Assembly: GCA_965205675.1 (NCBI GenBank)
Contig: OZ242186.1
Coordinates: forward strand, 1,056,001-1,120,000
Source of the DNA: Nitrosopumilus sp.
Lineage (GTDB): Archaea > Thermoproteota > Nitrososphaeria > Nitrososphaerales > Nitrosopumilaceae
DNA: 64,000 bases
Reading direction: 5' to 3'
Made by a program: the position numbers and the translations under genes. The notes beneath the pieces are model-generated. The model saw only the letters and a program-made list of their open reading frames with translations, searched no databases and was not told the origin of the DNA. This document shows, one piece after another, positions 50,445 to 54,663 of this stretch (positions are counted from its first letter, which is position 1; every line of letters begins with the position of its first letter).

Positions 50445-51534
50445 TACCCCAGATCATAAGTCTTTTCAATTTATTGTTCTTGCAAAATACTGATACATAT
50501 TCAAATTGAATTTGTGCGTTCTAAAATATTCCATAACTGTATACCTCATTTCATGAATAGATTCATAAAATTCTGATTCAACATTAACATGTTTGCACTG
50601 TCTCCAAACCTCTTCAATCATACTCAAATGTGGAGAACCTCTCAGAAGATATGCCAGTTTGACATCTTTGTTTTTACGCAGATATTTTTTTACATCATTA
50701 GCTTTGTGTTGCGGCGCTCTATCGACGATAACAAATATTTTTCCAAATTTTCTACGAGCTGCTTCCAGATAATCTATAAATGCAATTGAATTAAATTTTT
50801 CATACGATCTAAAGAAACTTTGATTATCATCATTTCCATAAACCAAAAATCTTTGATGTGATCCTCTCCAACGTACAATTAATCTTTGGTGTGCATCTGT
50901 CCAGTATTTTTTACCAAGACGTACATCGTCTACAAATACTGACTCGTCTTGGATAAATACTGTAAAACCTTTCTTTTTTGCCTTTTCTATGCGTGAAATG
51001 ATGCGGTTTTTCCACTTGCGGCACGTATCCTTGGATGCTGCTCGCACATGTACCTTTTGTGGAACCTTTGGTTTTAGATTCCATTTGTGCATCAAAGGAC
51101 GCACGTGAGTGATATGATATGTGATGTGTGTTCTGTAAAATATGAATTGTATCAGTTTTTTTGGAGTCATGCCGTCTGAAATTTTCTTAAATGCACGCTC
51201 TATTTTTTGTAATGCTTTATGTGAAATTAATGGCGGACGGCCAGAACGAGGGAGATCCTCCAGGCCCTCTAGTCCGTATTTTTCAAATGAATCAAGCCAA
51301 TTCCTTACAGAATTATATGTACAAAACATTTGGCTTGCAGTTTCAGCAATTGTGGATTCGTTGATTTTGATAATGCACATTGCATGTAATCTTGTTTTTT
51401 TGTGAATATTTTTTTCTTTTTTGTAGGCCTGGAGTAACTCGTCATTTGTGATGTCCATGAAATTATTTCTAATTACTGATCAAAAAGTATTGCTATTTGT
51501 TTTGAAAAATTGCAAAGAATTATGCTCCAAGGTA
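50445..51534 (-). mobile_element. IS630 subtype C, intact copy
   Basis: TA-bounded imperfect IRs TACCCCAGATCATAAGTCTTT / TACCTTGGAGCATAATTCTTT. Confidence 0.92.
50466..51458 (-). CDS. IS630-family transposase (full length)
   Basis: HTH/GRP, QDES, VDRAPQH, SPHLSMIEEVW. Confidence 0.93.
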   Translation of the reverse strand: MDITNDELLQAYKKEKNIHKKTRLHAMCIIKINESTIAETASQMFCTYNSVRNWLDSFEKYGLEGLEDLPRSGRPPLISHKALQKIERAFKKISDGMTPKKLIQFIFYRTHITYHITHVRPLMHKWNLKPKVPQKVHVRAASKDTCRKWKNRIISRIEKAKKKGFTVFIQDESVFVDDVRLGKKYWTDAHQRLIVRWRGSHQRFLVYGNDDNQSFFRSYEKFNSIAFIDYLEAARRKFGKIFVIVDRAPQHKANDVKKYLRKNKDVKLAYLLRGSPHLSMIEEVWRQCKHVNVESEFYESIHEMRYTVMEYFRTHKFNLNMYQYFARTIN

Positions 51535-51582
51535 TACATGGCATCAGTTACAATATTTCTTAGAAAAACTAAAACGTTTTAG

Positions 51583-51981
51583 TTACTTTGCTAGTTGTGT
51601 AACTAAATCAGTAGAGGTAATTATTCCAACAATTTTACCATTTTCAGTAACTGCCAGTTTTCTAATTTTTTTACTAGTCATTCTTTGAGCTGCTGCAGAT
51701 ATTAGTTCATTGTGGTTTATCGTAATTAATGGGGAAGACATTATTTTTTCTACAAAAGTATCAAAAGGCAAATTATTTGCAACAATTTTGGTTGCAAAAT
51801 CTCTATCTGTCACAATTCCCACAGGATTTTCTTTTTCTTTTACAATGATTGCCCCTATCCCTCCCTGTTCCATCATTTTTGCAATTTGCAATGCCGTAGT
51901 AAAAGTAGGAACAGTAATCAAAGATTTAGTCATTATATCCTGAACTGCGATAGAAGAATATGCAAAATCTTTGTGGCTCAT
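51583..51981 (-). CDS. CBS-domain protein
   Basis: Tandem CBS motifs (VQDIMT..VGIVTDRD; IMSSPLIT..VGIITSTD). Confidence 0.92.
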   Translation of the reverse strand: MSHKDFAYSSIAVQDIMTKSLITVPTFTTALQIAKMMEQGGIGAIIVKEKENPVGIVTDRDFATKIVANNLPFDTFVEKIMSSPLITINHNELISAAAQRMTSKKIRKLAVTENGKIVGIITSTDLVTQLAK

Positions 51982-52089
51982 TATCTGTTTAAGGGATTAT
52001 AATATTTAGGTGATTGTAAACCTATTACTCCCAAACTAATTTTATGTAATTATCCATGTGAATTGTTTTTATACATTTCCTCTCTTTCT

Positions 52090-52254
52090 ATACATCAGGG
52101 CATGGCTTTCGCTAGAGAATGGTTTCAATCAAAAGATGGCAGACATGTATCCATACGAGACTATTCTCTCAATGCTATCTTCATCCTAGTTAGGATTGTT
52201 CGCAGTTATTAGACGAGGCCTTGTCCCTCAATAATTACAACGCGACTTGCAGTC
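52090..52254 (-). ncRNA. Predicted bridge/seek RNA with target- and donor-binding loops
   Basis: Two loops share the scaffold ..AT-TGAG-N8/9-CTCG-T..AT-A. The variable arms match the flanks (9/9 and 7/7) and the element ends (6/7 and 6/7). Exact RNA ends are unknown. Confidence 0.75.
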
Positions 52255-53370
52255 CTAACTATAATTTTGTACAAATTCTCTCCTCTCCTTTAACATCCAA
52301 TAAATCACCCTCAGGATCTTTGATGCACCAGCTACTGCAGCTTTGGATGATCCTCTTTTCTTTTTAATGCGATTGTAAAATTTTGTAATGTCACTATCCT
52401 TGGCATGAATTGCATGAGTGTGTATGCATTCTGTTAGAACCCATCTCAATGTCATGCTTCCCCTTTTTGTTATTCTGCCATGGTGTATTGTATCTGCAGA
52501 GTTTCTAACTGATGGTACAACTCCTGCATATGCACACAGTTTGTGAGAATCATTGAATCTCTCAATATCTGCAATCTCTGATGCAATGACAAGCGAAGAA
52601 TAATGCCCAATTCCCGGAATCGAGTTTATCAAAATTGCATCAGGATTAACTTTTACAGCAGCATACACTTTGGAATTAATCTCTGCAATCTGTAAATTAA
52701 GGTGGCTGATTTGTTGCAAGAATCCGTCTATTCTGTAATCTCCTAGTGCCTTGAGTCTTCTGTTGTATGTTTCAGTGAATGTAACTCCTGGAATCCTGAT
52801 TCCTTCCTGTAACAATATTCCATGAACTGAATTCTTGACAGATGTTCTCCATTGGATTAGTTTTTTCCTATATCTTACAAGCTGTCTTTGTTGTACAATC
52901 TTTTTGTCTGGAACATAACATGTGGCAATGTATCCTCCTCGTAAAAGATCTGCCAATATCTTGGCATCAATCTTGTCTGTTTTCTTTTTTGATGCAGCAA
53001 TTGCCTTTGTCAAATATGGGTTTGAGAGTGTGACGTTTTTGTATCCCAAAGTATCTGTGAGAAATCGATACGTGTCATACCAGACTGATGAGGATTCCAT
53101 TACAATATTTGCAGAAATTGGTATTTTTGCAAAATGCTTCCTGATAGATTCATGAGTGTTATCCACTTTGTCATTTTGTAATACTTTGCCTGCATCATCC
53201 ATTATTGCTACTTGAAGAAACTTCTTGTGCAGGTCAATGCCCACAAACATGCCTTTCTTTGGTTTCTTCCTAATCTGTTTGTTTGTAATCTTTTTTGGAG
53301 CCGAGTATTTACGAACCTTGGAACTAGATTCATTTTTTATGCTATCTGATTTCCTTGCTTTCTTATTCAC
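52255..53370 (-). CDS. IS110-family DEDD recombinase/transposase
   Basis: GIDLH, VMESS and KTDKIDA (DEDD); SIPGIG; catalytic-Ser region GVVPSVRNSA; ~40-aa basic N-terminal extension. Confidence 0.93.
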   Translation of the reverse strand: MNKKARKSDSIKNESSSKVRKYSAPKKITNKQIRKKPKKGMFVGIDLHKKFLQVAIMDDAGKVLQNDKVDNTHESIRKHFAKIPISANIVMESSSVWYDTYRFLTDTLGYKNVTLSNPYLTKAIAASKKKTDKIDAKILADLLRGGYIATCYVPDKKIVQQRQLVRYRKKLIQWRTSVKNSVHGILLQEGIRIPGVTFTETYNRRLKALGDYRIDGFLQQISHLNLQIAEINSKVYAAVKVNPDAILINSIPGIGHYSSLVIASEIADIERFNDSHKLCAYAGVVPSVRNSADTIHHGRITKRGSMTLRWVLTECIHTHAIHAKDSDITKFYNRIKKKRGSSKAAVAGASKILRVIYWMLKERREFVQNYS

Positions 53371-53403
53371 ATATAGTTATTGGAAAAAACTATCAATATC
53401 ATT

Positions 53404-54469
53404 AGACCTCTTGCGTAATTAGACATATTTTACCATATTACACAAATTCCTTCACAGCAAGATCCAAAGCTAAGAACAACTTAACACATTTCATGTTAAC
53501 ATACAAGCAACTCTCAAAAAAGCCAAAATCCCTTCTCTCTTTTACTGGAGTGACTAGGCAACAGTTTGATGTGATTCTAAAGGATGTCAGAAAGAATCAC
53601 CGTATAGAAGAAAAGAAGAGACTATCCAAAGCAAAGAGAAAAAGAAGTATCGGAGCTGGGCGAAAGTTTGATTTGAGTCTTGAAGACCAGCTTGTAATGT
53701 TGTTTGTTTACTATCGGATGTACCTGACATGTGAATTGACAGGATATATGTTTGGATTAGACCAGAGCAACGTCTACAGAAACATCAGATTTAGAGCCTG
53801 CAGTAAGAAAAACAGTTCCTATTCCTGCAAAACTATACTCTGATTCCAAAAAAATGATGTACAGCAACTCCAACTGTTCTTTCCTGAATTAATTGCAATG
53901 ACTGATGGTACTGAACAACCAATCCCAAGACCCCAGAACAAAAAGAAAAGAAAGACTCACTATTCAGGCAAAAAAACACACAATAAAAAACCAAATCACC
54001 GTAAACCAGAAAGGTGAGATAATCCACAAACCTCCACATTCTCCAGGTAACATGATTATGCCATACTGAAAATAAAGTATCCTGCACTACACGAAGATGT
54101 GATGATATCTTATGACCTTGGGTATTTGGGAGTGGAAAAAGATTTTCCAGAACAGACAAGCATTCTACCATACAAGAAAAAGAAAGGAAAAAAACTGACC
54201 ATACATCAAAAGGAATGGAACAAGATGCAGTCAAGAATCCGAATAAAAGTAGAACATATTATCTCTCAAATCAAAAAGTTTAGGATTAATTCTGAGACAT
54301 TTAGGAATAGATTGTGCAGATATGATGCAATAAGTGACATCGTATGTGGAATTGTAAATTTCAAGACAAGATGGAAGCAAGAGTTTGTTGTGATTCCGTA
54401 ATCTCAGAAATTATTTGAAATTAAATTCAATGAAAGATAAGATTTTGTTTGTAATTACGCAAGAGGTCT
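53404..54469 (+). mobile_element. IS5-family element, copy 3 (multiple indels)
   Basis: Same IRs; ATT on both flanks. Confidence 0.92.
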
Positions 54470-54663
54470 ATTCTTTCTGACGTCTCTTAGAATCACATCA
54501 AACTGTTGCCTAGTCACTCCAGTAAAAGAGAGAAGGGATTTTGGCTTTTTTGAGAGTTGCTTGTATGTTAACATGAAATGTGTTAAGTTGTTCTTAGCTT
54601 TGGATCTTGCTGTGAAGGAATTTGTGTAATATGGTAAAATATGTCTAATTGCGCAAGAGGTCT
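54470..54663 (-). mobile_element. Inverted left-end fragment of the same IS5-family element
   Basis: Reverse complement of 53404-53598. Confidence 0.9.

Follow-up and report, generated by a model that had tools for sequence, protein, structure and literature searches.

We analysed a 64,000-nt stretch of contig OZ242186.1 (Nitrosopumilus sp., assembly GCA_965205675.1, positions 1,056,001 to 1,120,000 of the forward strand; hereafter the window) and found on its minus strand an insertion sequence, here named ISa. ISa is very probably an IS1111-type element of the IS110 family from a Nitrosopumilus-like ammonia-oxidising archaeon, with a DEDD recombinase guided by a bridge (seek) RNA encoded 3′ of the stop codon. 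Coordinates are those of the window, on its minus strand, and C1 denotes the genome contig. A preliminary description of the same DNA had proposed an IS1111-type element of the IS110 family whose DEDD recombinase is intact, a 3′ non-coding RNA with target- and donor-binding loops, and a thaumarchaeal host. The first proposal agreed with Pfam and NCBIfam matches and with the alignment of catalytic residues, and the second with the RNA alignment and the covariation of the arms. As for the host, the genome consists of one 2.01-Mb contig with an archaeal amoA, and relatives of the element occur in records labelled Nitrosopumilus or Cenarchaeum.

The boundaries of ISa were determined from ten full-length copies in the genome (98–100% identity) and from unoccupied paralogous sites. 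The sequence common to the ten copies runs from AACTATATGTGAAT (53378) to ATTCACATGG (52054), with AT-AATTA(C/T)A coming next. At C1:1994501, an unoccupied paralogue reads TTCCAATAATTACA; two others, at C1:1159222 and 1629586, are the counterparts of the occupied loci 815076 and 1666190 and read ATCCAATAATTACA. On the basis of the copy alignment and these three unoccupied paralogues, the insertion site is tCYA-AT-AATTACA, and the window copy entered TTCCA-AT-AATTACA. The right flank was AATTACA in eight copies and AATTATA in two. The left flank was (c/t/g)AAT in five copies, with the other five lying directly behind a related element, ISb. Comparison of occupied with empty sites revealed no classical target duplication, only a short core at both junctions, as in the IS110 family. 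The non-coding sequence amounts to 201 nt after the recombinase stop and 8 nt before the GTG start; in the IS1111 group, too, the long non-coding region lies downstream of the gene. The 8-bp subterminal inverted repeats (ATGTGAAT/ATTCACAT) are separated from the ends by 6 nt (AACTAT) on the left and by GG (2 nt) on the right; such repeats, of 7–17 bp, accompanied by terminal extensions, are the IS1111 pattern in the available text of PMC11187229. Contigs of two public sequencing runs (X2 and X3) contain a joint between 52049 and 53377 that omits 1327 nt, with four ambiguous letters and sides of 20–26 nt. This joint may represent the empty form but is indistinguishable from the paralogous empty site C1:1994501.

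The core dinucleotide was assessed in two other genomes, G001 and G002. For the family of locus L045 in G001, we counted 143 unoccupied sites of the form TTTG-NT-(T)GATTCATA, compared with none for a reversed control. Among the 100 of these sites that were listed, the dinucleotide was CT in 93, TT in six and AT in one. At occupied sites, the left junction was CT and the right junction AT. G002 contained 30 empty sites with GT (24) or TT (6); its occupied copies retained GT or TT at the left junction and had AT at the right one. Target and donor thus have only the T in common, and the left junction keeps the base of the target, the right junction that of the donor. Across other genomes, the left-junction dinucleotide was CT, GT or TT, the same as in their empty sites. 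In IS621, according to the available part of PMC11208158, the T of the CT core is almost invariant. The G001 target (loci L108–L119) is itself the last ~14 nt of another abundant repeat (CATAAAACATGTTCTTTGCTGATTCATA), of which the 143 sites are unoccupied copies.

The recombinase matched PF01548 (DEDD_Tnp_IS110, E = 3.4e-25), PF02371 (Transposase_20, E = 1.8e-21) and NCBIfam NF033542, “IS110 family RNA-guided transposase” (over residues 42–364, at 228.8 bits with a cut-off of 140). In alignments to the IS621 and ISCro4 chains, D46, E92, D132, D135 and S291 align with the catalytic D-E-D-D and Ser of IS621, and all five residues are intact. The serine motif reads G-VVP-SVRN-SA, with SA where G--P----SG has SG. 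By sequence, the best solved relative was the ISCro4 transposase (PDB 9t56, E = 4.6e-12, residues 41–362 against 9–315), which is without the N-terminal extension of ISa; similarity to IS621 (8wt6) was low (E = 2.8e-9). Of 62 related loci, 61 have the GTG of the left repeat in the reading frame of the recombinase, and in 59 that frame is open; the basic N-terminal extension (33–41 aa) was conserved in sequence among related loci.

The structure of the RNA was derived from an alignment of 33 distinct homologous RNAs using RNAalifold and pair counts. Five helices were recovered: P1 (GUUAGG/CCUAAC), P2 (UCGCG/UGCGA), P3 (UGAGG/CCUCG), P4 (GGAUG/UGUCY) and P5 (UGAGR/YCUCG). Of the cells in these helices, 98.4% were paired, and compensatory changes were observed in nine of the 26 pairs. 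None of 500 shuffles matched the observed values, and slid controls gave 32–47% pairing. P2/P3 and P4/P5 each enclose an internal loop in which two arms flank a hairpin, the arrangement of a bridge or seek RNA. Many of the pairs are G-U, and therefore the RNA strand is the recombinase-sense strand. The case for the structure rests on the alignment, because the fold of a single sequence was just slightly better than that of shuffles (z = −1.98), 8 of 200 of which did as well. An Rfam scan of 51000–54500 at E up to 10 returned only three chance-level matches, all far below gathering scores.

The same scaffold occurs in the sister families ISb and ISc of this genome (57–62% protein identity) and in 77 related loci, which come from records labelled Nitrosopumilus, Cenarchaeum or Nitrosopumilaceae, plus one 1.3-kb contig labelled Campylobacterales; their recombinases are 42–99% identical. 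A covariance model of the scaffold (R1) detected 29 copies in the host genome. Of 150 further genomes sampled from the host's family, 18 had matches, and matches were present in eight of 27 genera, that of G000 included. R1 found no match in 131 sampled genomes from 33 other families of the phylum, which are samples and not proof of absence. A further conserved block, CTAGCG(A/T)A(A/G)GC(C/T)ATGC, lies between the RNA and a TATA-like box (window about 52085–52115, minus strand) and is also present in relatives.

The arms of the target-binding loop vary between loci where the stems stay fixed, and they track each locus's own flanks, as expected from the preliminary description, which had named guide–target covariation among homologues as a check. 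Among the parsed loci of the 77, the 5′ arm took 28 different forms and the 3′ arm 19. The family mean for the 5′ arm was 7.08 matches of 11, compared with 5.32 for permuted pairings (maximum 6.13; 0 of 5000 permutations). For the 3′ arm, it was 4.55 of 7, compared with 2.63 (maximum 3.59; 0 of 5000). Permutation was performed at the family level, and kinship between loci inflates tests of this kind. Individual 5′ arms matched their own flank at 11 of 11 positions in L043 (ACAATCATAAC) and at 10 in both L059 (ACATACAAAA) and L045 (ATGATTCATA), and the 3′ arm of L042 (GGTTGATAACT) matched at 11 of 11.

For ISa itself, the two loops reported after the recombinase stop (52239–52207 and 52178–52148, minus strand) are present as written, and TGTAATTAT at 52045–52053 is indeed complementary to the loop 1 5′ arm at every position (9/9). 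The flanks of other copies agreed with the loop 1 arms in part, the right 9-mer flank recurring in eight of the ten and the left arm being matched loosely (tCYA). The arms spell the proposed target TGTAATT-AT-TAGAC, and the actual window site is TGTAATT-AT-TGGAA (plus strand). At C1:755692, an ISa-type element sits exactly at GGTCTA-AT-AACT; the right end of that copy was not found in the stretch examined. Guide variants exist in related strains: at 52212, within the target-loop 3′ arm, contigs of three public runs carry a minus-strand C to T change, and U occupies the equivalent position in L073, L074 and L096. The guides of L073 suit the right flank of L096 better than that of L073, and vice versa, with a shift of 1 nt.

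The arms of the donor-binding loop covary with the ends of the element, with two states per arm only, which limits the support that they give. For the 3′ arm, ATGGAT occurred with the right end CACATGG in 49 of 49 loci and ATAGAT with CACATAG in 24 of 24. For the 5′ arm, AUAG accompanied the left extension AACT in 36 loci, and AUGG or AUGA accompanied AACC in 15; the combination AUAG with AACC was found in five loci, all chimeric. L062, L065, L069, L092 and L096 are chimeras of an ISb-type left end with an ISa-type RNA and right end. Of the four guides, all of which had been said to end in AT, the 5′ arm of loop 2 does so. The 5′ arm of loop 1 has an additional U between AU and the stem, and both 3′ arms run 3–4 nt past AU. 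We considered the 3–4 nt after AU in the donor 3′ arm as a handshake guide and rejected this, as it fits ISb, ISc and the ACA-type families but ISa at only two of four positions.

The RNA consists of two modules of one design, each with an outer stem, 5′ arm, hairpin, 3′ arm and outer stem. Module 1 would read the target, its 5′ arm pairing with the sense strand of AT+AATTACA and its 3′ arm with the opposite strand of tCYA+AT. The 4-nt AACU extension of the 3′ arm matches the element's own left end, so that the arm as a whole matches the left product junction; this stretch may act as a handshake guide. Module 2 would read the donor, its 3′ arm corresponding to the right-end CATGG-AT and its 5′ arm being complementary to the left-end AT-(A)ACTAT. 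The joined ends CACATGG-AT-AACTAT would recombine with the target tCYA-NT-AATTACA just 3′ of the common T, leaving the target dinucleotide at the left junction and the donor AT at the right. The RNA is presumably made and bound by the recombinase, and a circular form presumably exists, with the predicted junction CACATGG-AT-AACTATATGTG. This circle junction was not seen in the assembled contigs of four public sequencing runs. The features of ISa are listed in Table 1.

Table 1. Features of ISa and its flanks in window coordinates.
Feature	Position	Strand	Description
Insertion sequence proper	53378..52054	-	1325 bp, plus 2-nt AT; copy alignment and empty paralogues
Left target flank (LT)	53381..53385	-	TTCCA in the window copy; end alignment of 10 copies; empty paralogues TTCCAATAATTACA or ATCCAATAATTACA
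Left-junction AT	53379..53380	-	Target-derived; T common with donor; copies, empty sites
Left terminal extension	53373..53378	-	AACTAT (relatives AACYAT); predicted to be read by donor-loop 5′ arm and last 4 nt of target-loop 3′ arm
Left subterminal inverted repeat	53365..53372	-	ATGTGAAT; holds GTG start codon 53370–53368
Recombinase open reading frame	53370..52255	-	371 aa (stop included), GTG start; ~40-aa basic N-terminal extension, DEDD/RuvC-like domain, Transposase_20 domain
Bridge/seek RNA core	52141..52259	-	Helices P1–P5; stop codon TAG 52257–52255 inside P1
Target loop 5′ arm	52230..52240	-	UUGUAAUUAUU; pairs with sense-strand AT-AATTACAA
Target loop 3′ arm	52204..52214	-	GUCUA-AU-AACU; sense of left flank, dinucleotide and first 4 nt of element
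Donor loop 5′ arm	52172..52181	-	AAGAUAGCAU; complement AT-GCTAT against left end AT-AACTAT; one bulged base needed
Donor loop 3′ arm	52146..52155	-	UAUGG-AU-ACA; same sense as right end CATGG-AT
Conserved motif downstream of RNA core	about 52137–52129	-	CAUCUUUUG
BRE/TATA-like box	52066..52079	-	GAAATG-TATAAAAA, outward-facing; first T 20 nt from right end; putative promoter
Right subterminal inverted repeat	52056..52063	-	ATTCACAT; then 2-nt extension GG 52055–52054
Right-junction AT	52052..52053	-	Donor-type; always AT in relatives; copies, other genomes
Right target flank (RT)	52045..52051	-	AATTACA; copy alignment, empty sites

Several observations weigh against an active, RNA-guided ISa. 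The open reading frame is intact in only two of the ten copies, the window copy and C1:617129. The other eight share a GC-to-AT change and a 2-nt deletion that lead to a stop after 57 aa (the equivalent of window 53204–53208). GUCUA matches the actual left flanks of ISa at 2–4 of 5 positions, counting T/C as wobble, and an exact GTCTAATAATTACA, a perfect 14-mer site at C1:1787396, is unoccupied. The 5′ arm of ISb lies 2 nt out of the expected register. The donor 5′ arm matches the left end at six of seven positions, and then only with one bulged base, while the ACAU after AU in the donor 3′ arm matches the right flank at two of four. The handshake role of AACU is without covariation support, because AAC is nearly invariant, and kinship among the related loci means that they are not independent, which limits the covariation as a whole.

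Some of these points would also fit a decayed, immobile family in which the RNA and the ends are relics, a reading that we consider unlikely. The frameshift common to eight copies, the frameshifts of all ISb copies (near aa 129–146) and the vacancy of the ideal site speak for it. Against this, the copies are 98–100% identical with both loops identical in all ten, the two intact copies are one substitution apart, and the insertions lie in diverged paralogous sites, i.e., they were separate events. It is plausible that the window copy is functional. In the frameshifted copies, a downstream ATG would yield a 315-aa protein without the first catalytic Asp.

It is still less probable that the 3′ structure is only a terminator, an mRNA stabiliser or a protein-binding element, with the protein picking the site and the arm matches arising as AT-rich by-products. 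The modest single-sequence fold and the lack of an Rfam family match in the scanned region would suit this idea, but it does not account for 28 and 19 arm variants that change with the flanks on fixed stems, in loci whose recombinases are 42–99% identical. Moreover, the available parts of three reports (PMC11187229, PMC11208160 and PMC11208158) describe experimental demonstration of the guide logic in IS1111 and IS110 relatives.

Two other placements of the left end were weighed against the boundary at 53378. One would start the element only at ATGTGAA, with AATAACT as target and AATAACT-AT-AATTACA as the site, so that an AT core stands beside both inverted repeats. AATAACT-AT does precede ATGTGAA in all non-tandem copies, tandem junctions read CACATGG-AT-ATGTGAA, and AAUAACU is contained in the loop 1 3′ arm. 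However, AATAACTATAATTACA is absent from the genome (0 exact matches), the three empty counterparts of occupied loci have CCAATAATTACA, from which AACTA is missing, and AACYAT persists in sister families that have other targets. Insertion inside the left end by ISb, whose guides spell AACT-AT / ATGTGAA, accounts for the tandem junctions. This target model was considered first and dropped once the empty paralogues were found; we now give it very little credence. The anatomy of the preliminary description (element 53400..52054, left flank GTCTA-AT at 53407–53401, joined ends CATGG-AT-GATAT) deserves almost none, for although 53401–53407 is identical to 52208–52214 (the loop 1 3′ arm; P ~0.005 for GTCTAAT on a given strand within 60 nt) and the CATGG-AT half does match the loop 2 3′ arm (tATGGAT), the copy alignment starts at 53378/53374, 53379–53400 is flanking DNA missing from eight of ten copies (shared only with the copy at C1:202525 and the empty paralogue C1:1994501, where it runs uninterrupted into the right flank), GTCTAAT marks not the junction of the window copy but the end of a different IS (the genome has 73 occurrences of GCAAGAGGTCTA, with AT next to 25 of them on the 3′ side), and AACYAT, with which the donor 5′ arm covaries, lies inside the element in relatives, so that the left boundary is refuted by copy alignment and empty sites and the ends, when joined, actually read CACATGG-AT-AACTAT. 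The 16-nt terminus TTACGCAAGAGGTCTA, which is found at window 53401–53450 and about 73 genome places, is common to at least four different repeat ends.

The right end of ISa carries an outward-facing box that could bear on expression. All 31 distinct right ends contain a GAAATG-T(A/T)TAAAAA-like box at the same distance from the end, and joining of the ends would place it at positions −30 to −23 from the GTG, where archaeal TATA boxes usually lie. Such an arrangement suggests a leaderless GTG-start mRNA made only from joined ends, with the guide RNA processed from its 3′ part. Processing of the guide RNA from the 3′ part of the mRNA has been proposed for ISEc11 (PMC11187229, available text). 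A CBS-domain gene (window 51583–51981, minus strand) starts 73 nt past the right end in the same orientation as the box, which could drive it.

We propose, tentatively and with less than even confidence, that the Nitrosopumilaceae clade of ISa is an archaeal re-engineering of the bridge system that combines a joined-ends expression switch, product-matched target arms and a single-T crossover, with ISb targeting the ISa left end to form composites. Under this proposal, only circles or tandem copies would give rise to the leaderless transcript for recombinase and RNA. Both target-loop arms would be complementary to product junctions; the handshake would be 4 nt long, and the 5′ arm would carry an AU of the donor type. 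A single shared T as the crossover requirement would make the core naturally relaxed.

We compared ISa with characterized systems. As far as the available text of PMC11187229 describes them, the IS1111 elements with a seekRNA (ISEc11, ISPa11, ISKpn4 and ISPst6) resemble ISa in having a DEDD recombinase with a long downstream non-coding region, subterminal inverted repeats with terminal extensions, a top-strand-pairing segment 5′ of the bottom-strand-pairing one, natural retargeting by arm exchange and sister families aimed at the ends of other mobile elements. ISa differs from them in its archaeal host, its ~40-aa basic N-terminal extension, the GTG inside the left repeat and a serine motif with SA instead of SG/TG. 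Where they have a split bacterial junction promoter, ISa would have a TATA-like box of archaeal type, and its RNA scaffold is another one, with no Rfam match and, among the sampled genomes, with R1 matches only in the host's family.

The bridge RNA of IS621, in the available parts of PMC11208160 and PMC11208158, likewise has target and donor loops with two arms each for opposite strands, a dinucleotide with a conserved T, an arm whose 3′ extension matches the other DNA partner (the handshake guide), and a recombinase with catalytic D-E-D-D plus Ser. In ISa, however, the RNA lies 3′ of the gene instead of 5′, the arm order is reversed relative to gene orientation, and the handshake-like stretch is 4 nt instead of 2 nt, as far as those sources go. 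AT is the dinucleotide of the donor, and the target core is free at its first base, where A, C, G and T have all been seen. On the opposite strand, the loop shows left guide, hairpin, right guide and handshake stretch in the same sequence as IS621, which explains the “reversed order” noted for IS1111 in the available text of PMC11187229.

IS1111 elements occur in archaea according to PMC11187229, and bridge RNAs were predicted in 93% of ISfinder IS1111s according to PMC11208160, as far as the available text of each goes. A literature search found no such element from Nitrosopumilus or other thaumarchaea; the systems characterized in the papers searched are bacterial, and the supplementary predictions of Durrant et al. 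(PMC11208160) may list archaeal IS1111s. ISa can be regarded as a new archaeal example of the known RNA-guided bridge recombinases, with its archaeal expression design and free first core base as possible variant traits. About 28 natural target 5′ arms on one scaffold, in mesophilic AT-rich hosts, constitute a data set for rules of guide design and core choice, the first core base of the target varying freely across the family. ISa also suggests how such elements may control expression by archaeal promoter logic. In addition, it adds a well-resolved archaeal IS110 clade to the debate on a link between IS110 recombinases and archaeal Nop5 (bioRxiv 10.1101/2024.06.21.599552, available part). The exact boundaries serve annotation and explain part of the heavy IS load of the host genome, which is very rich in insertion sequences.

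The sister element ISb was always located inside the left end of ISa or ISc, between AACYAT and ATGTGAA (C1:996057–999149 and eight more places; loci L006–L010, L016 and L019). Because its own target arms spell AACT-AT and ATGTGAA, ISb is programmed against the left end of its relatives. Five of the ten ISa copies carry ISb and probably move with it as a composite. The bacterial IS1111 family members IS4321 and IS5075 reportedly insert into the terminal repeats of Tn21-type transposons, and insertion into the termini of other elements is likewise seen in the G001 family, in ISb and in one ISa-type copy. Close to ISa, the window contains an adjoining IS630-like transposase (DDE_3 with HTH domains; 50466–51458, minus strand) and, on the plus strand, a DDE_Tnp_4 (IS5-like) transposase split into two open reading frames (53493–53843 and 54099–54401).

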